IMG/VR virus record: IMGVR_UViG_3300025126_000736
Length of the DNA: 57,774 nt
From: an uncultured virus (IMG/VR IMGVR_UViG_3300025126_000736)
Taxonomy: Duplodnaviria; Heunggongvirae; Uroviricota; Caudoviricetes
Strand: one strand, 5' to 3'
Part shown: positions 8,028 through 26,434 of the stretch, piece by piece
Numbering within the stretch: the first letter of the stretch is position 1
Layout: every line of letters begins with the position of its first letter
Program-made: the position numbers and the translations under genes
Notes under the pieces: model-generated
Told to the model about the DNA's origin: nothing
The model's input: the letters and a program-made list of their open reading frames with translations, nothing else
Database searches by the model: none

Positions 8028-8103
8028 TGGTGGGTGTGGAGGGATTCGAACCCACGACCTTCAGGTTAAAAGCCTGTTGCTCTACCAACTGAGCTACACA
8101 TCC
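8028..8103 (-). tRNA. tRNA-Lys(UUU), type A
   Basis: Cloverleaf GGATGTG...; anticodon arm ACAGG-CT-TTT-AA-CCTGA; encoded CCA. Confidence 0.95.
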
Positions 8104-8117
8104 AAAAAAAATAAAAC

Positions 8118-8193
8118 TGGTAGGCGCGGTGAGGTTCGAACTCACGACCAACTGGTTAAAAGCCAGATGCTCTACCAACTGAGCTACACGCCT
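8118..8193 (-). tRNA. tRNA-Lys(UUU), type B
   Basis: Cloverleaf AGGCGTG...; TCTGG-CT-TTT-AA-CCAGT; CCA. Confidence 0.95.
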
Positions 8194-8203
8194 AAAATAA
8201 AAC

Positions 8204-8279
8204 TGGTGGATGCGGTGGGGGTCGAACCCACGACCTTCAGGTTAAAAGCCTGTTGCTCTACCAACTGAGCTACACATCC
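8204..8279 (-). tRNA. tRNA-Lys(UUU), type A
   Basis: Tandem copy, TTT anticodon, CCA. Confidence 0.95.
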
Positions 8280-8293
8280 AAAAAAAATAAAAC

Positions 8294-8369
8294 TGGTAGG
8301 CGCGGTGAGGTTCGAACTCACGACCAACTGGTTAAAAGCCAGATGCTCTACCAACTGAGCTACACGCCT
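8294..8369 (-). tRNA. tRNA-Lys(UUU), type B
   Basis: Tandem copy, TTT anticodon, CCA. Confidence 0.95.
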
Positions 8370-8379
8370 AAAATAAAAC

Positions 8380-8455
8380 TGGTGGATGCGGTGGGGGTCG
8401 AACCCACGACCTTCAGGTTAAAAGCCTGTTGCTCTACCAACTGAGCTACACATCC
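8380..8455 (-). tRNA. tRNA-Lys(UUU), type A
   Basis: Tandem copy, TTT anticodon, CCA. Confidence 0.95.
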
Positions 8456-8468
8456 AAAAAAATAAAAC

Positions 8469-8544
8469 TGGTAGGCGTGGTGAGGTTCGAACTCACGACC
8501 AACTGGTTAAAAGCCAGATGCTCTACCAACTGAGCTACACGCCT
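8469..8544 (-). tRNA. tRNA-Lys(UUU), type B
   Basis: First Lys copy in transcription order, TTT anticodon, CCA. Confidence 0.95.
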
Positions 8545-8549
8545 AAAAT

Positions 8550-8581
8550 AAAAAACCCAAAGAAATATATATTCCTTTGGG
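8550..8581 (-). terminator. Attenuator-type intrinsic terminator directly 5' of the tRNA-Lys block
   Basis: CCCAAAGGAA-loop-TTTCTTTGGG-TTTTTT on the minus strand. Confidence 0.85.
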
Positions 8582-8634
8582 CTAAACAAAACACCTAAAG
8601 GCTACTTATTCGTAGCCTTTATATAGACTACTTT

Positions 8635-8673
8635 TTATGGTTTCTTTGATTTTTTAGATTTAAAAGTTTTCAT
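8635..8673 (-). CDS. Putative Lys-sensing leader peptide MKTFKSKKSKKP
   Basis: AAGGA SD; 6 of 12 codons Lys (5 AAA, 1 AAG); followed by alternative hairpins, a terminator and 6 tRNA-Lys. Confidence 0.75.
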   Translation of the reverse strand: MKTFKSKKSKKP

Positions 8674-8713
8674 TATATAGTTTCCTTAAATTTTGATTTA
8701 ATTTTATTAAAAT

Positions 8714-8778
8714 TGGTTGGGGTAGTAGGATTCGAACCTACGACTATTAAGCACTTTAACCGCCCAAGCTCTACCCCA
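8714..8778 (-). ncRNA. 65-nt tRNA-like RNA lacking a normal anticodon arm
   Basis: 7-bp acceptor TGGGGTA/TACCCCA, T-arm GTAGG-TTCGAAT-CCTAC, D-like arm, ACCA end; only 11 nt between D and T arms. Confidence 0.65.
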
Positions 8779-8797
8779 AATTGTGTTACATTAAAAC

Positions 8798-8872
8798 TGG
8801 CGGGGAAGGTAGGATTTGAACCTACGACCTATCGGTTAACAGCCGACTGCTCTACCACTGAGCTACATCCCC
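8798..8872 (-). tRNA. tRNA-Asn(GUU)
   Basis: GGGGATG... GTCGG-CT-GTT-AA-CCGAT ... G73-CCA. Confidence 0.95.
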
Positions 8873-8892
8873 AAATTGTGTTACATTAAAAC

Positions 8893-8967
8893 TGGCGGGG
8901 AAGGTAGGATTTGAACCTACGACCTATCGGTTAACAGCCGACTGCTCTACCACTGAGCTACATCCCC
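8893..8967 (-). tRNA. tRNA-Asn(GUU)
   Basis: Copy in 95-bp-period array. Confidence 0.95.
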
Positions 8968-8987
8968 AAATTGTGTTACATTGAAAC

Positions 8988-9062
8988 TGGCGGGGAAGGT
9001 AGGATTTGAACCTACGACCTATCGGTTAACAGCCGACTGCTCTACCACTGAGCTACATCCCC
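8988..9062 (-). tRNA. tRNA-Asn(GUU)
   Basis: Copy in 95-bp-period array. Confidence 0.95.
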
Positions 9063-9082
9063 AAATTATATTACATTAAAAC

Positions 9083-9157
9083 TGGCGGGGAAGGTAGGGC
9101 TTGAACCTACGACCTATCGACATATCACCGAGTGCTCTACCACTGAGCTACATCCCC
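9083..9157 (-). tRNA. tRNA-Asn-derived variant with non-canonical anticodon loop (UGAUAUG)
   Basis: Body near-identical to tRNA-Asn; anticodon arm CTCGG-TGATATG-TCGAT. Confidence 0.75.
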
Positions 9158-9177
9158 AAATTATATTACATTAAAAC

Positions 9178-9252
9178 TGGCGGGGAAGGTAGGGCTTGAA
9201 CCTACGACCTATCGACATATCACCGAGTGCTCTACCACTGAGCTACATCCCC
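9178..9252 (-). tRNA. tRNA-Asn-derived variant with non-canonical anticodon loop
   Basis: Same variant as 9083..9157. Confidence 0.75.
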
Positions 9253-9272
9253 AAATTGTATTACATTAAAAC

Positions 9273-9347
9273 TGGCGGGGAAGGTAGGACTTGAACCTAC
9301 GACCTATCGGTTAACAGCCGACTGCTCTACCACTGAGCTACATCCCC
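9273..9347 (-). tRNA. tRNA-Asn(GUU)
   Basis: GTT anticodon, CCA. Confidence 0.95.
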
Positions 9348-9367
9348 AAATTATATTACATTAAAAC

Positions 9368-9442
9368 TGGCGGGGAAGGTAGGGCTTGAACCTACGACCT
9401 ATCGACATATCACCGAGTGCTCTACCACTGAGCTACATCCCC
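9368..9442 (-). tRNA. tRNA-Asn-derived variant with non-canonical anticodon loop
   Basis: Same variant as 9083..9157. Confidence 0.75.
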
Positions 9443-9462
9443 AAATTATATTACATTAAAAC

Positions 9463-9537
9463 TGGCGGGGAAGGTAGGGCTTGAACCTACGACCTATCGA
9501 CATATCACCGAGTGCTCTACCACTGAGCTACATCCCC
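9463..9537 (-). tRNA. tRNA-Asn-derived variant with non-canonical anticodon loop
   Basis: Same variant as 9083..9157. Confidence 0.75.
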
Positions 9538-9557
9538 AAATTGTATTACATTAAAAC

Positions 9558-9632
9558 TGGCGGGGAAGGTAGGACTTGAACCTACGACCTATCGGTTAAC
9601 AGCCGACTGCTCTACCACTGAGCTACATCCCC
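9558..9632 (-). tRNA. tRNA-Asn(GUU)
   Basis: First copy in transcription order, GTT anticodon. Confidence 0.95.
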
Positions 9633-9639
9633 AAAATAT

Positions 9640-9677
9640 AAAAAAACCCAAAAACTTTATTAATTAGTCTTTGGGTT
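9640..9677 (-). terminator. Attenuator-type terminator directly 5' of the tRNA-Asn block
   Basis: AACCCAAAGACT-loop-AGTTTTTGGGTT-TTTTT. Confidence 0.85.
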
Positions 9678-9724
9678 GATAACAAAGACTGCGATTTCGT
9701 TTCGCAGTCAAAAAAGAAACTGCG

Positions 9725-9769
9725 CTAAATATTTAAATTTCGTTTATTATTCTTATTAAGTGTTTTCAT
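9725..9769 (-). CDS. Putative Asn(/Lys)-sensing leader peptide MKTLNKNNKRNLNI
   Basis: TAAGGT SD; 5 AAT codons and 3 Lys codons in 14; followed by alternative hairpins and a terminator. Confidence 0.7.
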   Translation of the reverse strand: MKTLNKNNKRNLNI

Positions 9770-9814
9770 TTTTTTAGTTACCTTATATGTTTGTTGTCTT
9801 GCTTTATGTTTTAC

Positions 9815-9843
9815 ATTATTACACGTTAATTTAAGTCTGTCAA
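9815..9843 (-). promoter_or_regulatory. Sigma70-type inner promoter of the Asn/Lys tRNA operon
   Basis: TTGACA-17 bp-(TGT)AATAAT; IHF-like ATTCAAACACTTA at 9870..9882. Confidence 0.7.
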
Positions 9844-9921
9844 GCTTTTTTTAAAAATATTTTCAATTAATTCAAACACTTAAAAAAAATAAAAGAGTAG
9901 TGTCGATAATTAAAACGCAAT

Positions 9922-9954
9922 AAAAAACCTCTTAAAATTTCTTCCAAGAGGTTT
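9922..9954 (-). terminator. Terminator of outer Asn attenuator
   Basis: AAACCTCTTGGAA-loop-TTTTAAGAGGTTT-TTT. Confidence 0.75.
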
Positions 9955-10002
9955 AGAGTAAACGACTTGGAAGTTTTGGCTCCCAAGTATTGTTTTTTTA
10001 TT

Positions 10003-10080
10003 TTACAAAAGACAATAGGAAGTCATAACAATATTTTTATTGTTATTTATCTTATTATTTTTTGAAAAACTAAATGACAT
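10003..10080 (-). CDS. Putative outer Asn(/Lys)-sensing leader peptide MSFSFSKNNKINNNKNIVMTSYCLL
   Basis: TAAGGGT SD; KNNKINNNKN run; followed by alternative hairpins and a terminator. Confidence 0.7.
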   Translation of the reverse strand: MSFSFSKNNKINNNKNIVMTSYCLL

Positions 10081-10111
10081 AATGTTACCCTTATTTATTA
10101 AACTTAACTAT

Positions 10112-10140
10112 ATTATATATGACGAAAAAAATAAAGTCAA
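10112..10140 (-). promoter_or_regulatory. Sigma70-type outer promoter of the Asn/Lys tRNA operon
   Basis: TTGACT-17 bp-TATAAT. Confidence 0.75.
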
Positions 10141-10154
10141 CACAAAAAAACTAA

Positions 10155-10460
10155 TTAATTAAAATCCGATAGATTTTTTTTACCAAAAATTACGAATTCT
10201 ACATTACTGATAATGCTTGGTAACAGATTTTTTAAATTTGACTTAACAATAAGTGTGAAAAGTGCGCGTTGCTCATTTGAAACATCCATTAATGAAATTA
10301 AAGCATCATCCATCCGACTATGATCTTTTTCTTCATGATGATTATTAACATAATTAAGTGAGGTTAATAATCGAAGCCAATTAATCTGCTCATTACGATA
10401 AGAAGCATGAGAAAACACAGTACGAACAACTTGATTAATTTCAGTGTTTTTATTTAACAT
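10155..10460 (-). CDS. Hypothetical protein with C-terminal N-L-x-x-F(N) motif
   Basis: AAGGA SD; ends KNLSDFN. Confidence 0.55.
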   Translation of the reverse strand: MLNKNTEINQVVRTVFSHASYRNEQINWLRLLTSLNYVNNHHEEKDHSRMDDALISLMDVSNEQRALFTLIVKSNLKNLLPSIISNVEFVIFGKKNLSDFN

Positions 10461-10514
10461 TAGTTTTTATTCCTTTTGTAAAGCGAAGAAAGAAAATAGA
10501 GTAAAGTAATTAAG

Positions 10515-10889
10515 TTATTTAAAAATAGAAAAATTGAATTTTTCTGCAAGAATGCGCAATATAAATTTAAACTTATATAAGAATAAAGCTGGAAGTGAAA
10601 ATGGAATAATAAAAGCTAATATACCTAAAATAAATGATATAGTTCCTGTAATATCATCACTAATTATAAAGTATTTAAAAACATTGGCTATTAATGTATT
10701 ACTAACAGTGCTAAGTAAAGTGCCTAAATAAAAAGAAATTAGACAGCTTGCGGAAAATCCAATGATGGAAATAAAGTAAACCATTGAATATTCTTTTACT
10801 TTAATAAAAAGTTCTGGCTTAATTTTTGATAATGCTAAAAGGCATAAACTTATTGATATAAAGAGAACGGTAAGAAATTTAATAATCAT
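10515..10889 (-). CDS. Small membrane protein
   Basis: Three hydrophobic segments from MIIKFL (start moved from 11009). Confidence 0.5.
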   Translation of the reverse strand: MIIKFLTVLFISISLCLLALSKIKPELFIKVKEYSMVYFISIIGFSASCLISFYLGTLLSTVSNTLIANVFKYFIISDDITGTISFILGILAFIIPFSLPALFLYKFKFILRILAEKFNFSIFK

Positions 10890-10902
10890 CAGTTTTTTCC
10901 TA

Positions 10903-11085
10903 TTACGCCTTAGAAGAATCTTGGATGTGACTCTTTTTATTGTCAATATTTTTTCGCTTTTTATCTTGAAAAACGGCACTTTTAAAATTATGAACAAGAT
11001 CGTAGGCAATAGAGTTTCTTGCAGAACCTTTTATTTTTTCTGCTTTTGCCAATTCTTCTTTATTAAAAACCTTAGTTTTAGACAT
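10903..11085 (-). CDS. Small basic protein, weak ArfA-like pattern
   Basis: KG..RN.IA.DL..NF...V..DKK pattern, by eye. Confidence 0.35.
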   Translation of the reverse strand: MSKTKVFNKEELAKAEKIKGSARNSIAYDLVHNFKSAVFQDKKRKNIDNKKSHIQDSSKA

Positions 11086-11162
11086 TTTTTTACTCTTTTT
11101 TTAATGGTGTTGTTGAATTAAAATAATTATACCATTAAATAAGGTAAGAGTATAGTGTTGTA

Positions 11163-11564
11163 TTAGATATTATTTTTGGATTGCTCTTCAATCTCTTTCA
11201 TATATTCCCAAATAGATATTACATCGCGGGAAAATAAATCTGAACTATCAAAAAAAATAACTCTTGATTGTATTTCATTAAATGTGTAAAAATTTTGAGT
11301 AGTAGGGTTAATTTCTCTAACAATTAAAGAAAAAGCACCAGTAAGAAAAGAAGAACCAAGTCCATAATCGCAATCTAAATCAATAGATATCATTTCTTTT
11401 GTGCAATTAAGCTTTGGAAGAAAGATGTTATTTAAAAAAAAGTAACCTGAGTTTTTGCCATCATTTTTTTCCATTCCAAAGGGCGTCTTTGAAAAATCAT
11501 TTGTTAGGCTAATGTGGATCACAATAATACTCCAAATTAAAATGGCTATTAAAAAAATAGCCAC
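11163..11564 (-). CDS. STAS-like (DUF4325-type) protein
   Basis: DFSKTPFG...DG..SG and IDLD..YGLGSSFL..AF pattern. Confidence 0.55.
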   Translation of the reverse strand: MAIFLIAILIWSIIVIHISLTNDFSKTPFGMEKNDGKNSGYFFLNNIFLPKLNCTKEMISIDLDCDYGLGSSFLTGAFSLIVREINPTTQNFYTFNEIQSRVIFFDSSDLFSRDVISIWEYMKEIEEQSKNNI

Positions 11565-11574
11565 AAAATATTAA

Positions 11575-12201
11575 TTATTGAACAATGGGTAAAATAAAGT
11601 CAAGAGTTTGCATATCTTCTGTCAACGTGTGAATAGTGACTTTATCTCGAAGGAAATCAATAACAGGTTCTGTCTTTTTAGTGTATTGAGATAGTCGAGT
11701 TTTAAGTGTTTCTGCATTGTCATCTACCCGTTGAGAGACTTCACCACCACAACTATCACAAACACCGTCTATTTTAGGTTGTAATGTGGTTTTATTATAT
11801 GAGTCACCACAGACTTTACAACAAAGTCGATTAGATACTCGCTTAATAATGGCACTATCTGGCATATTAAGATAAAGGACGACAATGTTATTAAGATCAG
11901 ATCTTAAAGAAAGTAATAGCTCTGCTTGACTTACTGAACGAGGGAAACCATCAAAAACAATATGGTTGTCTTTGAGCGATTCAATTTTGCTTTTCATCAT
12001 ACCATTCATGATGTGACTGCTAATTAGTTCTCCTGTTTTTAGGGCGTGAGTCGCCTCTTTATAATAGGGCGCAGATTCTGTTGTTGAATTCTCTCTAAGG
12101 ACATTGCTTCCACTAATATGAGCGTATTTTTCATTAAGTAAGAGCTTTGCTAATGTTCCTTTTCCGCTGCAAGGTTTACCAATTAAAATAATGTCTTTCA
12201 T
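11575..12201 (-). CDS. adk: Adenylate kinase with Zn lid
   Basis: GKPCSGKGT P-loop, HISG..LR, DGFPR, CxxC...CxxC lid, RVDD. Confidence 0.9.
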   Translation of the reverse strand: MKDIILIGKPCSGKGTLAKLLLNEKYAHISGSNVLRENSTTESAPYYKEATHALKTGELISSHIMNGMMKSKIESLKDNHIVFDGFPRSVSQAELLLSLRSDLNNIVVLYLNMPDSAIIKRVSNRLCCKVCGDSYNKTTLQPKIDGVCDSCGGEVSQRVDDNAETLKTRLSQYTKKTEPVIDFLRDKVTIHTLTEDMQTLDFILPIVQ

Positions 12202-12316
12202 AAATAATACATCCTAAGTAAGTTGAGTGGTAATTATACCGAAAATTAAAGTAAATAACAACATTAAATTATTAATATTAATGTTTAATCGAAGTAAGAT
12301 CTGGAGCCAAGCTAGA

Positions 12317-12598
12317 TTAGTATGAAAAGTCCATTATTTTTTGCTGCACTTGCAATTTTTTTAATGAATGATGGTCTGGAAAGTAAATTTTTCCTAATAA
12401 ATAAGTAAAGTCAATACTTGTTTGAATAATATAGAGATCACAATAATAAGGACTAATGACTGTGCCAAAATTACGACCAACACCAACAGTGGAAAGGACA
12501 TTAGATAGTCGGAATTGTAAAGAAAACATTTCTTTAGAACTAATTTGATTTAGTTGTGCTGATTGTCGAATAAGTTTTTTAAATTCTTTTGAGATCAA
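12317..12598 (-). CDS. Hypothetical protein, paralog of the 12595..13143 C-terminal half
   Basis: Shared LSTxGxGxNFG...YxCD...SID; ends QKIMDFSY. Confidence 0.55.
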   Translation of the reverse strand: MISKEFKKLIRQSAQLNQISSKEMFSLQFRLSNVLSTVGVGRNFGTVISPYYCDLYIIQTSIDFTYLLGKIYFPDHHSLKKLQVQQKIMDFSY

Positions 12599-13143
12599 AA
12601 GTGTTTTAAGTTGCTATTAATTTTTTCCTTTAAAAACACCTTATGCTTTGGAAAGTATCGTTTACTTATATAATATGTTAGATCAATACTCATATTAATA
12701 ATGTGGAAGTCACAAAGGTAAGTGTTTTGCACTTTACCAAAATTGCAACCGCGACCAATAGTGGATAAAATATCTGAAAATCTCTGTTGGAGATCTGTCA
12801 TTTCGATTATTGTTATTTGTTTTAGATTTAATGATTTTTTGAGAAATTTTCTAAAATCTTTTGAAATTTTCCATCGTTCTTTGTTCCCTCCTCCATTTTG
12901 GTAAAAATCATAAATTATTTGACTAAAGAGTTTGAAGGCTTGAAACAGTGGATGCTCATCATTATTTGAGAATATTTTTGGATGAACAGTCTCATCTAAA
13001 AGTAAGTCATATAACTCATTTAACTCACCTTTACCATCATTGATCTTATAGGTATTAATTATGTCAAGTAAATTTGATTGATAATTAGGTACCGAAAAAA
13101 TATGTTTAGTAAAAATATATTGATGACTCATAATTATATCCAT
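12595..13143 (-). CDS. Hypothetical protein with C-terminal N-L-x-x-F motif
   Basis: Ends SNLKHF. Confidence 0.6.
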   Translation of the reverse strand: MDIIMSHQYIFTKHIFSVPNYQSNLLDIINTYKINDGKGELNELYDLLLDETVHPKIFSNNDEHPLFQAFKLFSQIIYDFYQNGGGNKERWKISKDFRKFLKKSLNLKQITIIEMTDLQQRFSDILSTIGRGCNFGKVQNTYLCDFHIINMSIDLTYYISKRYFPKHKVFLKEKINSNLKHF

Positions 13144-13196
13144 TTGTATTTAAATGAATCATTATTATAGTTTATTTACTAGATAAAGTCAATTAT

Positions 13197-13991
13197 TTAA
13201 CGAGTTATTTTACACATATGAACTTCGTTTTTTGATTGAAAATACTCAACATTTTTAATATATTTTTTTTCAATAAGCTCATTGTTTGCCTTTTTTATTT
13301 CTTGATTTAGGTGCTTAGGTTGCATATTGTTTTTTCCAAGTCTGTAGCCTAATTTGTTCATTGAAAAATTAACAGATTCTTGATTAATAAATTTGAATGT
13401 TTCATAAAATAAAAATAATGCACGAGCATATTGAGATTTAATACTGCTAAATATTTCAAGATTTAAGACTTCATAATCCAGAGTTTGTTCCGCATTAAAT
13501 AAATCATCTGAGATTTCTATTTGAAATATTTTTGCTTTAACATTCCATTCAACTCGATTAATGAGATTAGAATAAATTTTGTGAGACACTTCGCCTTCTT
13601 CATTAAATTTTTCAATTTGAAAGAAACAACTCATCATTTTTTTTATACGATCATCAATATCTTTTTTATTGCTTTTTCTATTTTGAATGCCAAGGCTTTT
13701 AATAATTTCATACTCAGTTAACTCAAACTTTTTAGAACCAGTAATTTGTTTTTTTCTCATAATAATGTGAAATAAAGGGTAGTCACGTTGAAGATCAAGT
13801 TTCCAACCAGAAAAAGAAATTCGTTCACTTTTACTTCTGGAAAGTTCGAAGTCAAACATTTCTTTTGTTTTGCTCATTTTTCTTTCAACTGGTGAAAATA
13901 TAGGTGTCGCAGCTAATGATGACGGAATGAGAGCTTCCCCTTTAAAAAGATAATTATGTTTTATATTTTTGTTGTTTACGATATTTTCCAT
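13197..13991 (-). CDS. repA: Plasmid replication initiator (RepA/TrfA-like)
   Basis: IP..L...PIFSP and FSGWKLDLQRD motifs resemble IncFIB/P1 RepA and TrfA; iteron array directly upstream. Confidence 0.75.
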   Translation of the reverse strand: MENIVNNKNIKHNYLFKGEALIPSSLAATPIFSPVERKMSKTKEMFDFELSRSKSERISFSGWKLDLQRDYPLFHIIMRKKQITGSKKFELTEYEIIKSLGIQNRKSNKKDIDDRIKKMMSCFFQIEKFNEEGEVSHKIYSNLINRVEWNVKAKIFQIEISDDLFNAEQTLDYEVLNLEIFSSIKSQYARALFLFYETFKFINQESVNFSMNKLGYRLGKNNMQPKHLNQEIKKANNELIEKKYIKNVEYFQSKNEVHMCKITR

Positions 13992-14081
13992 TATTATATA
14001 TCCAGTTTTTTATAGTAGAAATGAAACATTATCACAAAAAAAGCAAATGTCATTAGCGTGTCAAGAAAAAATAAAAAAATA

Positions 14082-16282: not shown

Positions 16283-16317
16283 AAAAAAAGCCCACTATAA
16301 TAAGTGGGCTTTTTTTG
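16283..16317. terminator. Bidirectional intrinsic terminator
   Basis: AAAAAAAGCCCACT-loop-AGTGGGCTTTTTTT between convergent genes. Confidence 0.85.
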
Positions 16318-16390
16318 TATTTGTAATAGCAATAATTAAAAAGGCACTTATTTTGTCAATAAGTGCCTTTTAGGTGAAACTGAAAATCAG

Positions 16391-17461: not shown

Positions 17462-17463
17462 AA

Positions 17464-20812: not shown

Positions 20813-21943
20813 ATGGTGTGGACTCAAAAAGATATAGGTAATATGATGAATGAAGATATTGATAAAGTGTTTGATTATTGTTTAAATGATGAAATTAATC
20901 TTTTTGATTATGATATGTCTTCGTTTTATAAAATATTATCCTCTAAAAATATAAGGTTTATTGAAATGTTAGATTCAAAAAATAAGTACAATAAAAACAT
21001 ATACAATTCTGATTTATTAAAGAATGCAGTGTATTTTGAGTCAGAAAAAATAGTTGAATTTATATTGAAGGATAAATCATTTAATATTGAGAATGAAGTG
21101 AAATATCGAATATTGGAAAACGCAGTGCATCTTGAAAAGCCAGATATTTTTAAATTATTAATGGCTGACGAAAGAATGGGTGACTTAGATGGTGTTAAGT
21201 TTACGAAATTATTGACGGGTTATATTGATAATCTGGAAATTTTAGAAATGTTGTTAAAAAATAATAAAGTGACCCCTTCTTATGATGTTTCAAATATATT
21301 ATCAAGTATTATTGGTAATAAAAGGATTCCTGATTCTGTTATTCATAATCATGTAAAAGTTATTTTAGATAGCAATAAAGTAAATCCAGTTGAAATAAAT
21401 AATGAGCCATTAAAAAAAGCTTGTCAGCTTGGCTATATTAAGGTTGTTAAGCTTTTATTGGCAGATCCTCGCATAAATCCACAGCAAAACATAGAAGAAT
21501 CATTATATTATGCTTCAAAAAATTGTCATTATGATATTATTATGTTGTTAATGAATGATAGTAGAATTACTGTAAAAGATGAAGATAATGATATATTTGA
21601 GGGAGCTTGTGTTTATGGAAATATCAAGTTGGTTGAGTTTTGGTTAGAAAATAAAATAACAACAAATAGAAATAAATCAGCGGGATTTTATCTTGCATGT
21701 AAAGAAGGTCATTATGAAATTGCTAAATTATTAATGAATAAAACGAAGATAAAAGTAAATGATTCATATCTTTGTTGTATAATGGATGCAATAGATTCAA
21801 AGCAATTCGAAATCGCAGAATTGTTATGGGATAATAAAAATATAAGAGAATTTTTAAAAAACACATACATTGAAGACTATAATGAGGCGTCTAAAATTAT
21901 ATTAAAAAGGAAAGTAGAGAGAAATATAAATGCATTTAATTAG
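20813..21943 (+). CDS. Ankyrin-repeat protein
   Basis: ACQLGYIKVVKLLLADPRINP, ACKEGHYEIAKLLM; ends RNINAFN. Confidence 0.85.
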   Translation: MVWTQKDIGNMMNEDIDKVFDYCLNDEINLFDYDMSSFYKILSSKNIRFIEMLDSKNKYNKNIYNSDLLKNAVYFESEKIVEFILKDKSFNIENEVKYRILENAVHLEKPDIFKLLMADERMGDLDGVKFTKLLTGYIDNLEILEMLLKNNKVTPSYDVSNILSSIIGNKRIPDSVIHNHVKVILDSNKVNPVEINNEPLKKACQLGYIKVVKLLLADPRINPQQNIEESLYYASKNCHYDIIMLLMNDSRITVKDEDNDIFEGACVYGNIKLVEFWLENKITTNRNKSAGFYLACKEGHYEIAKLLMNKTKIKVNDSYLCCIMDAIDSKQFEIAELLWDNKNIREFLKNTYIEDYNEASKIILKRKVERNINAFN

Positions 21944-22218
21944 CCAAAAAGAAGAGTCTTTGATAAGAAAAATATATTTAAAAATTATTATAAAATTTTA
22001 TTATATTTTTTTATTAATGAAATTATCGTTTGAATTAAATTTTAATGCAATATTAAAATATACAGATAGACCTTTATTGTTTGCATTATATGTTAAAAGT
22101 GATATATTTCTGAGATTATTGATAAATAATTATTTTAGTAATAATGATTATATGGAGGCTGTCACCAGAGCTATAAGATCTAGTGAAGTTAATGCATTAA
22201 AAATACTTATTAATAATA

Positions 22219-22440
22219 GTGAATAACCACACCCTAAAGGATGTGGCTTATTATTGAAGCCAAATTCTTAGGACTCAAGTTGCTTCGGCTTCTTGTGGTT
22301 ATTTTAATCCCACGTTTTAGTTGAAAAACTAAAGTATGATATGAGTATTACCTACAAATTTTTCCAGTTTGTAGCACTATTAACCTTATATCAAGGGTAG
22401 GAAAAAAAATAACAACCTTCGGGTTGATTTAACGTAAATA
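22219..22440 (+). ncRNA. IscB omegaRNA scaffold
   Basis: Structured non-coding region 5' of iscB (AATAACCAC pairs with GTGGTTATT); conserved in three other loci. Confidence 0.8.
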
Positions 22441-22445
22441 AGAGG

Positions 22446-23978
22446 ATGATAATGCAAAAAAGCAAAAGTAATGATGAGCAATATTACGTTTATGTCCAAG
22501 ACATAGATGGAACTCCGCTTATGCCGACCAAACGTTTTCGCAAAGTGAGACTTTTATTAAAAAAAGGTGAGGCGAAAGTCGTTTCTTACGATCCTTTCAC
22601 CATTAAAATGCTTTATAATGTAGGGAAAGAAGTTCAGACGCTTAATTTGGGCATTGATACAGGCACATCAAATATTGGCGTTTCTGTCACAACAAACGAA
22701 GGTAAAGAATTACTTTCTTCTACATTTAAAACAAACACATTAAAGATAAAAGGCACTATGGAAAAACGCCTTTCCCATAGACACACAAGAACACGATTCA
22801 AACGAGAAAAGAAAAAACGTAGAGCTATTGCTAATAACACTCATTTTAAGGGTGTTAAAGAATTTATGGCCTATGGCGCAAAAACCACAACAAAATACAA
22901 AGTAATTCGTTCTTCAATTTGTCGTTTAGAAAAGAAAGTTAAACATGGCAAGTTATCAAATACCGCGCAACATTGCCTTGATAATCACATCAATGTAGTC
23001 AACAAAATAAAGAAAATATTACCCATTAAAAACGTAATGGTAGAATATGCTTCATTCGATCTTCATAAGTTAATTAACCCCAATGTGAAAGGCGTTGATT
23101 ATCAAAAAGGGGCGCTCTATAATGAATTAAATCATAAATCTTATGTATTGAATAGAGATGGGCATACTTGTGTTTTGTGTAACAAAAGAAAAAAAGATGA
23201 GCTTGTCGAAGTGCATCATGTTATTTATAGATCTAATGGAGGTGCAGATCATTTTAATAATCTGGTCACTTTACACAGTGAATGTCATAAAAAAGTGCAT
23301 AATGATGTTAAAATAGAGGAAAATCTTTTTAACATAATTAAACAGAAAGATATTTTAAAAGAGACGATTCAAACAAAACAAGCCACTATTTTAAACAGTA
23401 TTATGTCACGATTTTTTCTATTTTTACATAATAATTTTGAATATGTAGAAGAAACTTTTGGTTATGAAACAAAAGCAAAACGTTATGAATACGGGATTGA
23501 TAAATCGCATAGTAATGATGCATTTGTTATTTCCTTTGGCAATAATAAGCCCAAAAAATTAAGTCGTGCGATAGAAATTGAATACGAACAATTTGCCAAT
23601 AACAAGCGTGTATTCATTTATGCAACGACAAAAAGAAGGTATACTACCACTATTGATGGTAAAAAAGTCACTGTTTATAATCGAAAAAAAGCAATGAACC
23701 AAAAAGAAGATTCTCTTGAAGAGTTTAGAGAAAAATACACTCAAAAACACGTTTCTCAACTAAAAGTATTGAAAGGTACAGTTAAGTTTCAAAATCGGTC
23801 AAATTATTCGTTTGAAAAGGGAGATTTGGTCAAGCTCAATGGAAAACTAAGGGTAATTTCAGGCAATACCAATAACGGAAGGTATGTAAGACTGAAAAAT
23901 GAGGGAGCAACTAATTTCAGCCCTAAAGAGTTAACAATGCTTAACCCTCGCCAAAATTTTAGAAGGATTAATTGGTAA
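22446..23978 (+). CDS. iscB: RNA-guided endonuclease IscB
   Basis: PLMP motif (GTPLMPT), RuvC-I GIDTG, Arg-rich bridge helix, RuvC-II VEYASFD, HNH CxxC...HH...NNL...CH, RuvC-III SHSNDA. Confidence 0.95.
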   Translation: MIMQKSKSNDEQYYVYVQDIDGTPLMPTKRFRKVRLLLKKGEAKVVSYDPFTIKMLYNVGKEVQTLNLGIDTGTSNIGVSVTTNEGKELLSSTFKTNTLKIKGTMEKRLSHRHTRTRFKREKKKRRAIANNTHFKGVKEFMAYGAKTTTKYKVIRSSICRLEKKVKHGKLSNTAQHCLDNHINVVNKIKKILPIKNVMVEYASFDLHKLINPNVKGVDYQKGALYNELNHKSYVLNRDGHTCVLCNKRKKDELVEVHHVIYRSNGGADHFNNLVTLHSECHKKVHNDVKIEENLFNIIKQKDILKETIQTKQATILNSIMSRFFLFLHNNFEYVEETFGYETKAKRYEYGIDKSHSNDAFVISFGNNKPKKLSRAIEIEYEQFANNKRVFIYATTKRRYTTTIDGKKVTVYNRKKAMNQKEDSLEEFREKYTQKHVSQLKVLKGTVKFQNRSNYSFEKGDLVKLNGKLRVISGNTNNGRYVRLKNEGATNFSPKELTMLNPRQNFRRINW

Positions 23979-24461
23979 CTAAGGCGCAATTTATCCCTGA
24001 CCTGAAGGACAGGGTATTATTGCTAAAATTTGAGTACTAAATGATAAAATAGTTAATTTTTATGATTACCCATTATTAAGTATTGCATCGGTTAATGGTT
24101 GTATTGAAACTATTAAAATGTTAAGTAAAAATGATAAAGTTAGCTTAGAAGAAGGATTCCCATTATCTAGAATTATGAATGGTAGTATTTACGGAATTAA
24201 TGATAATAAAAGTGAAGTATTGGAGTATTTATGGAGTTTGAAAGAGATGCGAAATCTATTGTTTTTCTCAGATAATAAATTGCATAGGGAGTTAAAAAAT
24301 AAAGATGTGATGAGAAAGATTTCTGTTTTTTAATAAGTTGAATTTTATCGTGTTGCTATAATGTATTTAATGTTTTCGGTTTAATATGCTTATACTAGAA
24401 ATTTTACAGATAATATTAAGTATAGTAAATCAATCTAGGAGTATTCCAAAATATATAAATC

Positions 24462-24549
24462 TGGCAGAAGGTGTGAGATTCGAACTCACGGAGGAGTAAC
24501 CCTCGCTGATTTTCAAGACCAATGCCATAAACCGCTCGGCCAACCTTCT
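24462..24549 (-). tRNA. tRNA-Ser(UGA)
   Basis: Long variable arm; CT-TGA-AA loop; GCCA. Confidence 0.9.
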
Positions 24550-24554
24550 AAATT

Positions 24555-24630
24555 TGGGGTGAATGACGGGACTCGAACCCGCAACCATCTGGATCACAAC
24601 CAGAAGCTCTGCCATTGAGCTACAAGCACC
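24555..24630 (-). tRNA. tRNA-His(GUG)
   Basis: G-1/C73; TT-GTG-AT loop; two acceptor mismatches. Confidence 0.85.
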
Positions 24631-24644
24631 ATTGTGTGTAAATC

Positions 24645-24686
24645 TGGTGAAAAGGGAGGCCACTTAAACCACTCATGCACCTTTCC
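24645..24686 (-). pseudogene. Internally deleted tRNA-Ser (acceptor plus D arm only)
   Basis: Deletion between repeated CCTCCCT segments. Confidence 0.8.
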
Positions 24687-24700
24687 AAAATATATAAAAC

Positions 24701-24790
24701 TGGAGGAAGATAAGGGATTCGAACCCTTGTGCCGATCACTCGACCAACTGTTTTCAAGACAGAGCTAATAAGCCACTCTAGCAATCTTCC
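24701..24790 (-). tRNA. tRNA-Ser(UGA)
   Basis: GGAAGAT acceptor; CT-TGA-AA loop; long variable arm. Confidence 0.9.
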
Positions 24791-24808
24791 AAAATATGTA
24801 ACTAAATT

Positions 24809-24899
24809 TGGTGGAAAGGGAGGGATTCGAACCCTCGTGCCGATTTCTCGACTCACTCCTTAGTAGGGAGGCCATTTAAGCCAGCTCATGCACCTTTCC
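24809..24899 (-). tRNA. tRNA-Ser(ACU), A34 variant of Ser(GCU)
   Basis: CCTCC-CT-ACT-AA-GGAGT; otherwise identical to 25022..25112. Confidence 0.8.
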
Positions 24900-24913
24900 A
24901 AAATATATAAAAC

Positions 24914-25003
24914 TGGAGGAAGATAAGGGATTCGAACCCTTGTGCCGATCACTCGACCAACTGTTTTCAAGACAGAGCTAATAAGCCACTCTAGCAATCT
25001 TCC
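24914..25003 (-). tRNA. tRNA-Ser(UGA)
   Basis: CT-TGA-AA loop; long variable arm. Confidence 0.9.
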
Positions 25004-25021
25004 AAAATATGTAACTAAATT

Positions 25022-25112
25022 TGGTGGAAAGGGAGGGATTCGAACCCTCGTGCCGATTTCTCGACTCACTCCTTAGCAGGGAGGCCATTTAAGCCAGCTC
25101 ATGCACCTTTCC
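25022..25112 (-). tRNA. tRNA-Ser(GCU)
   Basis: CT-GCT-AA loop; long variable arm. Confidence 0.9.
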
Positions 25113-25126
25113 AAAATATATAAAAC

Positions 25127-25216
25127 TGGAGGAAGATAAGGGATTTGAACCCTCGTGCCGATTTCTCGACCATCTGTTTTCCAAACAGAGCTAATAAGCC
25201 ACTCTAGCAATCTTCC
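25127..25216 (-). tRNA. tRNA-Ser(GGA)
   Basis: TT-GGA-AA loop. Confidence 0.85.
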
Positions 25217-25234
25217 AAAATATGTAATTAAATC

Positions 25235-25324
25235 TGGTGGAAAGGGAGGGATTCGAACCCTCGTGCCGATTTCTCGACTCACTCCTTAGCAGGGAGGCCA
25301 CTTAAACCACTCATGCACCTTTCC
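25235..25324 (-). tRNA. tRNA-Ser(GCU)
   Basis: CT-GCT-AA loop. Confidence 0.9.
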
Positions 25325-25338
25325 AAAATATATAAAAC

Positions 25339-25428
25339 TGGAGGAAGATAAGGGATTTGAACCCTTGTGCCGATTTCTCGACCATCTGTTTTCCAAACAG
25401 AGCTAATAAGCCACTCTAGCAATCTTCC
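25339..25428 (-). tRNA. tRNA-Ser(GGA)
   Basis: TT-GGA-AA loop. Confidence 0.9.
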
Positions 25429-25446
25429 AAAATATGTAATTAAATC

Positions 25447-25488
25447 TGGTGGAAAGGGAGGCCACTTAAACCACTCATGCACCTTTCC
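25447..25488 (-). pseudogene. Internally deleted tRNA-Ser (acceptor plus D arm only)
   Basis: Same deletion as 24645..24686. Confidence 0.8.
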
Positions 25489-25502
25489 AAAATATATAAA
25501 AC

Positions 25503-25592
25503 TGGAGGAAGATAAGGGATTTGAACCCTTGTGCCGATCACTCGACCAACTGTTTTCAAGACAGAGCTAATAAGCCACTCTAGCAATCTTCC
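25503..25592 (-). tRNA. tRNA-Ser(UGA)
   Basis: CT-TGA-AA loop. Confidence 0.9.
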
Positions 25593-25606
25593 AAAATATG
25601 TAAATC

Positions 25607-25694
25607 TGGCAGAAGATGTGAGATTCGAACTCACGGAGGAGTAACCCTCGCTGGGTTTCAAGACCAGTGCCATAAACCGCTCGGCCAATCTTCT
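25607..25694 (-). tRNA. tRNA-Ser(UGA)
   Basis: AGAAGAT acceptor; CT-TGA-AA loop; GCCA. Confidence 0.88.
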
Positions 25695-25699
25695 AAATT

Positions 25700-25775
25700 T
25701 GGGGTGCATGACGGGACTCGAACCCGCAACCATCTGGATCACAACCAGAAGCTCTGCCATTGAGCTACAAACACC
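25700..25775 (-). tRNA. tRNA-His(GUG)
   Basis: G-1/C73; TT-GTG-AT loop. Confidence 0.9.
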
Positions 25776-25789
25776 ATTGTATGTAAATA

Positions 25790-25880
25790 TGGTGGAAAGG
25801 GAGGGATTCGAACCCTCGTGCCGATTTTTCGGCTCACTCCTTAGCAGGGAGGCCATTTAAGCCATCTCATGCACCCTTCC
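25790..25880 (-). tRNA. tRNA-Ser(GCU)
   Basis: First in transcription order; CT-GCT-AA loop. Confidence 0.9.
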
Positions 25881-25890
25881 AAAATTTCAT

Positions 25891-25926
25891 AAAAAACCCT
25901 CTTTAAGTGTAACCTAAAGAGGGTTT
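25891..25926 (-). terminator. Attenuator-type terminator directly 5' of the Ser/His tRNA block
   Basis: AAACCCTCTTTAGG-loop-CTTAAAGAGGGTTT-TTT. Confidence 0.88.
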
Positions 25927-25976
25927 CTTTAAGGTTAGTTTATCAATGACAAACTAACCTATATAGAGGTAGTCTA

Positions 25977-26039
25977 TCAAATATGTTTGCTACTCGAATG
26001 TAGCGAATAAGCGCTGTAATGTGAATTAATGTTTTTCAT
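25977..26039 (-). CDS. Putative Ser/His-sensing leader peptide MKNINSHYSAYSLHSSSKHI
   Basis: AAGGT SD; 6 Ser and 3 His codons in 20; followed by alternative hairpins and a terminator. Confidence 0.82.
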   Translation of the reverse strand: MKNINSHYSAYSLHSSSKHI

Positions 26040-26081
26040 TTTAGTTAATACCTTTTAGTGTGTGTCTCTATTATGTTTAAC

Positions 26082-26110
26082 ATTATGTCATGTAAAAATC
26101 ATTATGTCAA
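26082..26110 (-). promoter_or_regulatory. Sigma70-type inner promoter of the Ser/His tRNA operon
   Basis: TTGACA-17 bp-(TGA)CATAAT; IHF consensus match AATCAATGACTTA at 26137..26149. Confidence 0.75.
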
Positions 26111-26190
26111 TAGTTTTTTTAAATATTTTTCAATTAAATCAATGACTTAAAATAAAAATAGCATTACCCCTCATTAATAAAAAAATGCAT

Positions 26191-26223
26191 AAAAAAAACC
26201 TTGAAGTTTTGCCTTCAAGGTTT
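26191..26223 (-). terminator. Terminator of outer Ser/His attenuator
   Basis: AAACCTTGAAG-loop-CTTCAAGGTTT-TTTTT. Confidence 0.85.
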
Positions 26224-26280
26224 AAAATTGCAATAATTTTATGTTGAAGGCTTGTCTTGACAAACCTTCGTAAACGAAGT

Positions 26281-26364
26281 TTAAGTTTGCATTAGACATA
26301 GGAAAACGGAACTAGAAGAACTAGAACTCGAATGACTATGTGAATGTGCTTTAAAATTAAACAT
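26281..26364 (-). CDS. Putative outer Ser/His-sensing leader peptide MFNFKAHSHSHSSSSSSSSVFLCLMQT
   Basis: AAGGCG SD; 13 consecutive His/Ser codons using mixed Ser codons (TCA, AGT, TCG, TCT, TCC); hairpins and a terminator follow. Confidence 0.85.
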   Translation of the reverse strand: MFNFKAHSHSHSSSSSSSSVFLCLMQT

Positions 26365-26405
26365 TTTTTATTCGCCTTTTTAATTTAATTATTTATAATA
26401 TTTAC

Positions 26406-26434
26406 ATTGTAATATAGTTATTTAAAAATATCAA
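26406..26434 (-). promoter_or_regulatory. Sigma70-type outer promoter of the Ser/His tRNA operon
   Basis: TTGATA-17 bp-TACAAT. Confidence 0.65.

Follow-up and report, generated by a model that had tools for sequence, protein, structure and literature searches.

The locus raises the question of how the transcription of its tRNA gene arrays is controlled. The window analysed, a stretch of 57,774 nt with a GC content of 26%, comes from an uncultured virus of aquifer origin and most likely belongs to a large AT-rich phage; no close relatives of the element were found in any collection. A preliminary description proposed that the arrays lie behind cognate leader-peptide attenuators, and this proposal was followed up computationally.

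tRNA arrays and leader reading frames

tRNA genes were predicted by ARAGORN and Rfam, and all tRNAs in the window were located on the minus strand. The tRNA content proposed for the regions downstream of the leaders was recovered, as follows:

8028..8544, minus strand: Lys array, six tRNA-Lys(UUU) of two alternating sequence types (ARAGORN, Rfam)
8717..8778, minus strand: tRNA-like element of 62 nt lacking a D arm, in the spacer that separates the Asn array from leader L3
8798..9632, minus strand: Asn array, five tRNA-Asn(GUU) and four Asn-like copies with an aberrant anticodon loop
24462..25880, minus strand: Ser/His array, 11 tRNA-Ser, two tRNA-His(GUG) and two truncated tRNA-Ser remnants

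The tRNA-Ser anticodons were UGA, GCU and GGA, with one ACU. The 62-nt tRNA-like element may be a processing signal.

Five short ORFs preceded by Shine-Dalgarno sequences had been reported upstream of these arrays, and all five were located on the minus strand where they had been placed:

10003..10080, minus strand: leader ORF L1 (type I module), 25 codons, six Asn and three Lys
9725..9769, minus strand: leader ORF L2 (type II module), 14 codons, five Asn and three Lys
8635..8673, minus strand: leader ORF L3 (type II module, without its own promoter), 12 codons, six Lys
26281..26364, minus strand: leader ORF L4 (type I module), 27 codons, of which codons 7-19 are 13 consecutive His/Ser codons (three His and ten Ser)
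25977..26039, minus strand: leader ORF L5 (type II module), 20 codons, six Ser and three His

The ribosome-binding sites of all five are of the TAAGG type, with spacing as in the protein genes of the window, and L1 to L5 are predicted on this sequence to be translated. Contigs from RNA libraries spanned L5 and its terminator in three of four runs, with DNA carry-over a possible source.

The match between leader composition and downstream tRNAs was evaluated against chance by taking all 752 ATG-initiated ORFs with 10-40 codons from the two strands and giving each the score of its highest-scoring 10-residue window. For Ser+His, L4 (score 10) and L5 (6) ranked first and second, the next best ORF scoring 5; for Asn+Lys, L1 (9) and L2 (7) ranked first and second, ahead of an ORF scoring 6; and for Lys alone, L3 (6) ranked first, the next best ORF again scoring 5. 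Each top scorer precedes its cognate array, in agreement with the preliminary description. The match extends to the codons themselves: Lys codons AAA/AAG correspond to anticodon UUU, Asn codons AAU/AAC to GUU and His codons CAU to GUG, while the ten Ser codons of L4 fall into the UCA/UCG, UCU/UCC and AGU classes read by the array anticodons UGA, GGA and GCU, so that all three Ser anticodon classes of the array are covered. Taken alone, the enrichment in L1 to L3 is weaker evidence than that of the Ser/His leaders, because no triplets are commoner in the genome than Lys and Asn codons.

A mismatch between leaders and tRNAs in other arrays had been named as a possible refutation. In four unrelated public huge-phage genomes (LR745206, LR756501, LR745208 and LR756504) a match was found. 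The comparison covered 20 author-chosen regions drawn from an incomplete tRNA list, in which 58 candidate leaders were selected by a rule blind to composition. Mean enrichment for the downstream tRNA isotypes was z = 1.35, against -0.02 for mismatched pairs, and none of 5000 permutations reached the observed mean. Individually, 20 of the 58 candidates exceeded z = 2 and 38 did not. Of 18 matched candidates, 13 had a U-tailed hairpin between the stop codon and the tRNA, vs 4 of 32 unmatched ones. The isotypes behind these leaders include Gln, Pro, Ala, Thr, Ile, Val, Gly and Glu.

These results bear on a non-regulatory explanation, in which the leaders arose by chance as frames in AT-rich spacers and are not translated, and the hairpins are leaky terminators or tRNA-precursor processing signals. 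DNA of 26% GC does readily yield Lys- or Asn-rich frames, and the RNA-library contigs could stem from carry-over. However, AT-rich sequence does not produce 13 consecutive His/Ser codons, the five leaders outscore the other ORFs among the 752 for just the amino acids of the arrays that they precede, and the association of leaders with tRNAs recurs in four other phage genomes. Coincidence is accordingly considered very unlikely.

Promoters, terminators and alternative pairings

Candidate promoters were found upstream of four leaders:

10112..10140, minus strand: promoter P1 (for L1), sigma-70-like, 11/12 match, 17-nt spacer
9815..9843, minus strand: promoter P2 (for L2), sigma-70-like, 11/12 match, 17-nt spacer, extended -10
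26406..26434, minus strand: promoter P4 (for L4), sigma-70-like, 10/12 match, 17-nt spacer
26082..26110, minus strand: promoter P5 (for L5), sigma-70-like, 11/12 match, 17-nt spacer, extended -10

L3 has no promoter and is intra-operon, between the Asn and Lys arrays. L2 (with P2) and L5 (with P5) have in common a 40-nt promoter/5'UTR pattern that is absent elsewhere in the window, but their regulatory codons differ, each set following its own array. No further promoter match of at least 10/12 was found between any of the terminators and its array; tRNA expression therefore requires read-through.

A chain of five segments (A-B-C-D-E) with alternative pairings A:B, B:C and C:D and a U-tailed D:E terminator had been described after each leader, with A at or next to the stop codon. 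Both features were present in all five leaders:

9925..10022, minus strand: attenuator 1, A 10022-10012 (within the ORF end), B 9993-9980, C 9973-9965, D 9954-9941, E 9937-9925, U tail
9640..9724, minus strand: attenuator 2, A 9724-9719 (directly 3' of the stop codon), B 9709-9703, C 9693-9683, D 9675-9666, E 9656-9647, U tail
8548..8631, minus strand: attenuator 3, A 8631-8625, B 8620-8612, C 8605-8594, D 8581-8570, E 8567-8556, U tail
26196..26289, minus strand: attenuator 4, A 26289-26274 (across the stop codon), B 26270-26259, C 26256-26244, D 26221-26211, E 26206-26198, U tail
25887..25979, minus strand: attenuator 5, A 25979-25967 (from the stop codon; a near-copy of C), B 25960-25948, C 25944-25926, D 25923-25910, E 25907-25897, U tail

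The first tRNA after attenuator 2 begins at 9632, the first tRNA-Lys after attenuator 3 at 8544 and the first tRNA-Ser after attenuator 5 at 25880. In all five leaders segment A largely repeats segment C and segment B starts 10-17 nt past the stop codon; 37 of the 45 cognate codons lie at least 16 nt upstream of A.

The significance of the pairings was estimated from 2000 dinucleotide shuffles per leader, with segments delimited after the folds had been seen, which makes the p-values somewhat optimistic. For A:B the values in L1 to L5 were 0.118, 0.008, 0.006, 0.045 and 0.023 (Fisher 3.8e-5), and for C:D 0.0005, 0.004, 0.064, 0.004 and 0.045 (Fisher 4.1e-7); A:B in L1 (p 0.12) and C:D in L3 (p 0.064) were thus no better than shuffles, and A:B in L4 is weak, at about -6 kcal/mol. 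Among ordinary gene-end terminators of the window, only 1 of 14 had upstream complementarity at p<0.05, which argues further against chance hairpins.

Constrained folding largely bore out the switch proposed in the preliminary description. When the first 10 nt after the stop codon were blocked to mimic a ribosome at the stop, B:C and D:E formed in all five leaders; with the E arm blocked, the minimum-energy fold was A:B and C:D in four, while L3 kept its strong B:C. Terminator/antiterminator energies for L1 to L5 were -25.3/-23.7, -24.4/-17.6, -26.6/-16.7, -26.4/-17.5 and -31.7/-12.2 kcal/mol. In every leader the terminator conformer thus has the lower energy, so that the switch must be kinetic.

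Rfam searches gave a full-length but sub-threshold match of attenuator 1 to His_leader (27 bits). Two weak matches of L5, to the PyrR binding site at 28 bits and to the trpB motif at 29 bits, fell below the respective gathering thresholds of 54 and 59. These two are what can be cited for direct sensing, in which the leader RNA reads the tRNA itself, as a T-box does, or an RNA-binding protein (PyrR, TRAP) exerts control, and the ribosome is uninvolved. Against this, no T-box match was found in the leaders in Rfam searches up to E = 1, the 85-100 nt or so from stop codon to terminator are too short for a T-box, and direct sensing leaves the ribosome-binding sites and cognate codon runs unexplained. 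Such control is considered very unlikely here.

Proposed attenuation mechanism and its trigger

The codon match, the ribosome-binding sites and promoters, the terminator in the path of transcription, the mutually exclusive pairings, the position of A at the stop codon and the distance from codons to A together support the attenuator reading. Directly visible in the window are the parts in their order, together with the codon match and the alternative pairings. It is likely, judging from these sequence features, that ribosome-mediated (leader-peptide) transcription attenuators gate tRNA arrays in a large AT-rich phage, and the arrayed tRNAs are probably made only while ribosomes decode the cognate codons slowly. 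Translation of the leaders, the kinetic choice of fold, the sign of regulation and the physiological trigger are what we infer beyond the parts.

In the proposed scheme, transcription from each promoter would first cross a short leader ORF whose regulatory codons are decoded by the downstream tRNAs. With cognate charged tRNA abundant, the ribosome would reach the stop codon and mask A, so that B:C and D:E form and the U-tailed D:E hairpin terminates transcription ahead of the tRNAs. With cognate tRNA scarce, the ribosome would stall at least 16 nt upstream of A and leave it free; A would pair with B once B emerges, C would then pair with D, and the array would be transcribed in the absence of the terminator. 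As a near-copy of C, A would offer C little toehold for its displacement. The expected outcome is an isotype-specific negative feedback, with tRNA synthesis continuing until cognate codons are again decoded quickly. The wiring would be nested: L1 and L2, with Asn and Lys codons, would gate the Asn array and everything downstream, and L3, of these codons holding only Lys, would gate the Lys array separately from within the operon.

The same parts and ribosome sensing could also operate by a different detailed logic, with A:B a mere RNA-polymerase pause hairpin or irrelevant and with another decision (a ribosome reading on or re-initiating and so melting B:C), another sign or another default. 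The weak A:B of L4, the A:B of L1 that does not exceed shuffles, the invariably more stable terminator and the B:C that L3 retains with E blocked all fit such a logic. It is nevertheless judged unlikely: B begins far enough past the stop codon in all five leaders that a ribosome in the ORF or at its stop cannot cover it, so that a trp-like scheme of four segments, lacking A, could not reach antitermination, and it is hard to see why else A should be placed at the stop codon and be largely a repeat of C in every leader.

Under the proposed attenuation, the trigger could be the codon demand that an AT-rich genome creates, a shortage of amino acids or the loss of tRNAs to host nucleases. The last concerns role rather than mechanism: the attenuators would serve as sensors of host anticodon nucleases that deplete tRNA-Lys, Asn, His or Ser, and would switch on replacement tRNAs instead of governing general supply. 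Known targets of anticodon nucleases include Lys and the queuosine family, to which Asn and His belong. The window encodes two RNA ligases, and the anticodon loops of four Asn-like tRNA copies are altered; huge phages are thought to re-join cleaved tRNAs with such ligases (Al-Shayeb et al. 2020, PMC7162821). On the other side, codon demand is by itself sufficient to account for the Lys and Asn arrays, as no codons are used more often in 48 ORFs of the window than AAA (7.9%) and AAU (7.5%); the many isotypes behind the huge-phage leaders fit general supply control better; and no nuclease or host is known for the element. The link to anticodon nucleases is speculation, and a dedicated counter-defence role is possible though rather improbable.

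Comparison with known systems

The preliminary description knew of no leader-peptide attenuation of tRNA arrays on a mobile element, and a literature search likewise found no published case of leader-peptide (trp/his-style) control of tRNA genes. The closest likeness is to the enterobacterial his leader, with its multi-hairpin chain, and to the multivalent ilvGMEDA and thr leaders: a promoter, a short ORF of regulatory codons, a chain of exclusive hairpins and a U-tailed terminator, with the fold set by ribosome position. As in the multivalent leaders, a single leader would respond to more than one amino acid, L1 and L2 to Asn+Lys and L4 and L5 to Ser+His, and the Rfam His_leader match of L1 runs full length. 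The enterobacterial leaders regulate biosynthetic enzymes, whereas those described here precede tRNA genes on a phage. The chain here has five segments, an odd number, so that an untranslated leader should default to read-through, unlike trp and his; the segment that decides the outcome, A, is located at the stop codon and not under the regulatory codons; two tandem promoter-leader-terminator modules precede an array, with a third leader intra-operon; and sequence homology is below Rfam thresholds.

Leaders of synthetase genes, such as pheST (pheM), likewise sense charged cognate tRNA and control a decoding component for the same amino acid; leader-peptide attenuators of alaS, thrS, trpS and leuS are listed for Streptomyces lividans (PMC8079986). 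Whereas pheST-type leaders control production of the charging enzyme, those described here would control the tRNA itself, and the loop would thus close directly on the molecule awaited by the ribosome. T-box riboswitches are alike in exerting amino-acid-specific terminator/antiterminator control by reading the state of a particular tRNA, but they bind uncharged tRNA directly, without translation. To our knowledge, tRNA genes are not among T-box targets.

The arrays themselves resemble those of huge or jumbo phages as described in PMC7162821, with large AT-rich genomes, dozens of isotype-sorted tRNA genes and RNA ligases. In the main text of that study the terms 'leader' and 'attenuat' are absent and array regulation is not addressed; the four of its genomes compared above carry analogous leaders.

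tRNA clusters and their leader ORFs

Twenty-eight tRNA genes were located in two clusters, all on the minus strand. In the direction of transcription, the first cluster comprises a promoter (P1), a leader ORF (L1) with putative attenuator 1, a second promoter (P2), L2 with putative attenuator 2, nine Asn-type tRNA genes, a 62-nt tRNA-like element, L3 with putative attenuator 3 and six tRNA-Lys genes. The second comprises P4, L4 with putative attenuator 4, P5, L5 with putative attenuator 5, and eleven tRNA-Ser and two tRNA-His genes. The coordinates of the five leader ORFs in the preliminary description were all borne out.

10003..10080, minus strand, leader ORF L1
9725..9769, minus strand, leader ORF L2
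8798..9632, minus strand, Asn array
8635..8673, minus strand, leader ORF L3
8028..8544, minus strand, Lys array
26281..26364, minus strand, leader ORF L4
25977..26039, minus strand, leader ORF L5
24462..25880, minus strand, Ser/His array

Each leader ORF is preceded by a ribosome-binding site of the TAAGG type at the spacing usual for the element, and four of the five have a sigma-70-like promoter of their own (10–11 of 12 positions matched). No further promoter match (at least 10 of 12) was found between each terminator and its array, so tRNA expression would depend on read-through. The wiring of the first cluster is nested: L1 and L2, with Asn and Lys codons, precede both arrays, and L3, with Lys codons only, lies within the operon before the Lys array. 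From this codon content, a shortage of Asn could open the Asn array alone and a shortage of Lys could open both.

Since Lys- and Asn-rich reading frames are cheap in AT-rich DNA, the leaders were compared with all short ORFs of the window (752 ATG ORFs of 10–40 codons, both strands), each scored by its best 10-residue window. For Ser plus His, L4 ranked first (10) and L5 second (6), with the next ORF at 5; for Asn plus Lys, L1 ranked first (9) and L2 second (7), with the next at 6, and these two also led for Asn alone; for Lys, L3 ranked first (6), with the next at 5. The leaders, described earlier as rich in the amino acids of the downstream tRNAs, are thus the top scorers, each directly upstream of the matching array, a pairing that composition alone does not give; the original observation is confirmed. 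Leader codons also correspond to array anticodons. The clearest case is L4, in which six codons are followed by 13 unbroken His/Ser codons, and whose ten Ser codons include all three classes that the array, with its three Ser anticodons, can read. Across 48 window ORFs, AAA (7.9%) and AAU (7.5%) are the two commonest codons, Ser is fifth (7.6%) and His is rare (2.1%).

A 40-nt promoter/5'UTR pattern is common to L2 and L5 and absent from the rest of the window; 100 shuffles gave 0 chance matches. The L2 and L5 peptides have similar starts, and L1 and L4 have a common start of their own and a hydrophobic tail. A module scaffold that appears conserved, with regulatory codons exchanged to suit each array, argues for function. 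MAFFT alignments of the paralogous modules were of insufficient quality for pair counting.

Several unusual tRNA-related sequences were observed within the arrays and between them:

8717-8778, minus strand, 62-nt tRNA-like element exactly between the Asn array and L3
9086-9157, 9181-9252, 9371-9442 and 9466-9537, minus strand, four identical Asn-like tRNA copies interleaved with true tRNA-Asn genes
~25488-25446 and 24686-24644, minus strand, two truncated tRNA-Ser remnants
24809-24899, minus strand, tRNA-Ser with anticodon ACU, not GCU

The 62-nt element (Rfam tRNA, 38.7 bits) has an acceptor stem, a T arm and one more arm, lacks a D arm, and may be a processing site that releases the L3 leader from the tRNA precursor. 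In the Asn-like copies the anticodon loop is rewritten and the anticodon stem weakened; ARAGORN calls them Tyr(AUA), Rfam scores them at 53 bits versus 75–77 in the true tRNA-Asn genes, and no cloverleaf forms in their minimum-energy fold. Decay, a decoy role or some other use could account for them. In the tRNA-Ser remnants the 5' part is fused directly to the 3' acceptor end, and they look like scars of recombination within the array. The ACU gene is a single-base variant of neighbouring copies.

The predicted RNA switch

The preliminary description assigned to every leader five segments, A to E, with alternative pairings A:B, B:C and C:D and a U-tailed terminator D:E. This layout was recovered throughout, A:B and C:D being present in all five leaders. 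In the minimum-energy fold of each leader transcript a strong B:C hairpin is followed by the D:E terminator. The D:E span folds at -10.8 to -15.3 kcal/mol and is U-tailed in 5/5 leaders, and in L2, L3 and L5 the terminator ends 6–15 nt upstream of the first tRNA. Segment A had been placed at or next to the stop codon, and it lies there in each case: within the last codons (L1), over the stop codon (L4, L5) or 1–4 nt past it (L2, L3). In all five leaders A is largely a repeat of the C sequence, so A and C would compete for B on equal terms.

The two predicted states were examined by constrained folding. With the stop codon masked together with the ten bases that follow it, as by a terminating ribosome, all five leaders adopted B:C plus D:E, as had been proposed. 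With the 3' arm of the terminator blocked, the proposed alternative of A:B plus C:D was obtained in L1, L2, L4 and L5 but not in L3, which kept its very stable B:C hairpin. A plain four-segment scheme of the trp type was also considered. Segment B starts 10–17 nt past the stop codon, so that the footprint of a ribosome at the stop would not extend to it or would just meet it; with B so placed, such a scheme would be unable to antiterminate, and the switch would need A. Most cognate codons (37/45) lie at least 16 nt upstream of A, and a ribosome stalled at these codons would leave A free.

Pairing was compared with 2000 dinucleotide shuffles of the partner region. For L1 to L5, A:B gave p values of 0.118, 0.008, 0.006, 0.045 and 0.023 (Fisher 3.8e-5) and C:D gave 0.0005, 0.004, 0.064, 0.004 and 0.045 (Fisher 4.1e-7), all somewhat generous because the segments were delimited after the folds had been seen. 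Individually, A:B of L1 and C:D of L3 were not significant against the shuffles. Among 14 ordinary gene-end terminators of the window used as a control, upstream complementarity at p<0.05 occurred in one. The terminator conformer is the more stable state in every leader, so the choice between folds must be kinetic. A:B is weak in L4 (~ -6 kcal/mol). Because the segments are odd in number, a leader that is not translated is expected to read through, which sets it apart from those of trp and his. An energy-"gain" metric for antiterminators was dropped, as it was confounded by the strong B:C hairpins.

Two other kinds of leader were weighed against ribosome-mediated attenuation. A T-box riboswitch was rejected, no T-box covariance model matching either leader region at E values up to 1, and a protein-binding leader was rejected on the Rfam scan of the leader regions. 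The attenuator interpretation is supported by these comparisons and folds.

Contigs from four aquifer metatranscriptome runs were compared with 25881-27100. In three of the four, a contig spanning 25881-26058 or 25881-26100 runs into the first tRNA-Ser and bridges the L5 terminator; such contigs show no transcript ends and may reflect DNA carry-over. No contig in the four runs covers 26209-26283, a gap that is uninformative. Immediately past the L4 terminator, 40 nt (26168-26207) are found again, differing by two substitutions and a deletion of 2 nt, in otherwise unrelated contigs of three of the four RNA runs, and this points to a related element in that habitat.

Setting of the element and leaders in other huge phages

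The window has a GC content of 26%, and its ORFs are mostly short and of unknown family. Recognisable genes encode ankyrin and Sel1 repeat proteins, NrdD/NrdG, adenylate kinase, RNase H, homing endonucleases and several PHROG families; structural phage genes were not found within the window. For a phage, such a number of repeat genes in 58 kb, five of the ankyrin and one of the Sel1 type (62-658, 1763-2380, 2334-2885, 20813-21943, 54205-54690 and 49544-50614), is unusual. Expression signals are of bacterial type, with sigma-70-like promoters, TAAGG ribosome-binding sites and U-tailed hairpin terminators. Some of these terminators work in both directions between convergent genes, which shows the element to depend on intrinsic termination. 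These terminators and two RNA ligase genes are as follows:

16289-16342, bidirectional hairpin terminator between convergent/adjacent genes
37110-37135, bidirectional hairpin terminator between convergent/adjacent genes
43076-43098, bidirectional hairpin terminator between convergent/adjacent genes
54758-54775, bidirectional hairpin terminator between convergent/adjacent genes
34024-34713 and 56308-56973, minus strand, two RNA ligase genes (Pfam RNA_ligase and RLIG1; PHROG RNA ligase families)

The RNA ligases may repair cleaved tRNAs. Relatives of the first (34024-34713) were found solely in phages of 300–735 kb, and the window DNA was found in aquifer metagenomes; on these two grounds the element is read as part of a large phage.

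No close relatives of the element or its leaders were found in IMG/VR, JGI metagenomes, GTDB genomes, INPHARED or PLSDB. The L1-L2 region had no blastn match among plasmids and phages, no relatives of two flanking ORFan proteins were found in IMG/VR, and the L2/L5 promoter/5'UTR pattern had 0 matches in GTDB genomes. NrdD relatives in IMG/VR, from 25 loci, reached at most 62% identity, and 0/25 of these loci carry a tRNA; the closest NrdD proteins overall were 70–90% identical. Patterns for tRNA-Asn, tRNA-His and tRNA-Lys had 0 matches in IMG/VR, and that for tRNA-Asn had 0 in GTDB genomes. The sole match to the tRNA-Asn pattern in JGI metagenomes was contig L001, with a chromosomal tRNA-Asn beside 5S rRNA and no array. 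This gene (L001, 214-285) has the 51-nt core of the window tRNA-Asn and no encoded CCA, lies just upstream of a tRNA-Glu and an apparent rRNA-operon end (5S-like), and might point to the lineage of the host.

The preliminary description had named a lack of correspondence between leaders and tRNAs in other arrays as grounds for rejection. Four public huge phages sharing an RNA ligase with the window were therefore scanned (LR745206, LR756501, LR745208 and LR756504; 33–62 tRNA matches each), using 20 tRNA-bearing regions of the authors' choice, a non-exhaustive set. The tRNAs were divided into blocks at gaps >70 nt, and for each gap the longest ATG ORF of 8–45 codons ending 25–170 nt before the block was taken as the candidate regardless of composition (n=58). 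Enrichment for the amino acids of tRNAs in the next 1.5 kb had a mean z of 1.35, versus -0.02 for mismatched pairs from the same genome; z exceeded 2 in 20/58 candidates, and 0/5000 within-genome permutations reached the observed mean. When scored against the immediate block only, the mean z was 1.01, z exceeded 2 in 16/58 and again 0/5000 permutations reached the mean. A U-tailed hairpin lay between stop codon and tRNA in 13/18 candidates with z>2.5 versus 4/32 with z<=1. There was no clear match in 38/58 candidates. In the set as a whole, leader composition nonetheless matched tRNA isotypes, and the predicted association of leaders with isotypes is strong and independent of the window.

Many matched leaders start like L2, L3 and L5, with Met, then Lys or Thr, then Thr, and Asn a few residues on (regions L032-L035, L036-L040 and L048-L051, in LR745206, LR756501 and LR756504). 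This common start hints at a module shared across distant huge phages.

Interpretation and comparison with known attenuators

Judged from sequence comparison, the element is probably a known mechanism acting on a new target, and one widespread in large phages. The position of AAA and AAU as top codons fits a supply-and-demand governor of an AT-rich genome. The two RNA ligases and the four altered-loop Asn-like tRNAs leave room for a link to host tRNA-cleaving defences, which no result requires; the wide isotype range of leaders in the other phages is better fitted by general supply control than by such a link. A broader proposal, considered possible though on balance unlikely, is that large phages carry a general modular family of "decoding-speed sensors", in which every isotype-sorted tRNA block is a self-limiting resupply circuit, one module being recoded for various amino acids and nested within operons. 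The circuits would also act as counter-defence against anticodon nucleases, with the RNA ligases and altered-loop tRNAs belonging to the same tool kit. In such a sensor, the leader peptide would let the ribosomes of the host signal for each codon which tRNAs run short.

If the attenuator reading is correct, control of tRNA genes would be the shortest possible translational feedback loop, in which the wait of a ribosome for a tRNA switches on the genes for it, and this would bear on whether phage tRNAs are constitutive or made on demand and on what they are for. The leaders would provide a built-in read-out of the codons that the phage "expects" to be limiting in its host, and their codon content could help to predict the host tRNA pools of uncultured phages. 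As compact, amino-acid-specific sensors of decoding capacity, the modules would be candidate parts for synthetic circuits.

Full-text searching, judged by listings and abstracts, found no description of leader-peptide control of tRNA genes, in agreement with the earlier belief that no such system has been described. In the main text of the paper reporting the four huge-phage genomes, the terms "leader" and "attenuat" do not appear (PMC7162821), and the available portions of a genome-wide attenuator survey do not mention tRNA genes (PMC2965389). A possible attenuator before the E. coli tRNA-Phe genes was considered as a precedent and rejected, the K-12 pheV region having only a promoter directly before the tRNA; leaders of 3–4 nt are given for pheU and pheV elsewhere (PMC7049720). 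Curated Rfam leader families had no match in the leader regions at gathering thresholds; L1 gave a full-length match to His_leader (RF00514) at 27 bits versus a threshold of 49 (E 0.074).

Attenuation by leader peptides has featured in textbooks for fifty years. To our knowledge, the genes regulated by all described class I (ribosome-mediated, leader-peptide) attenuators are those for amino-acid biosynthesis, transport or aminoacyl-tRNA synthetases. The modules resemble this class in having a short ORF with a ribosome-binding site, cognate codons, an intrinsic terminator and a mutually exclusive antiterminator with a maskable segment. By logic they come closest to the multi-hairpin his leader and to the multivalent leaders of ilv and thr; in purpose, their closest counterparts are aminoacyl-tRNA synthetase leaders. 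The candidate system differs from class I attenuators in that the genes behind the terminators are tRNA genes, and from known attenuators in its five-segment geometry, where the stop codon is the site of the decisive segment, in its arrangement of tandem modules before each array with one module inside an operon, and in its setting in a phage.
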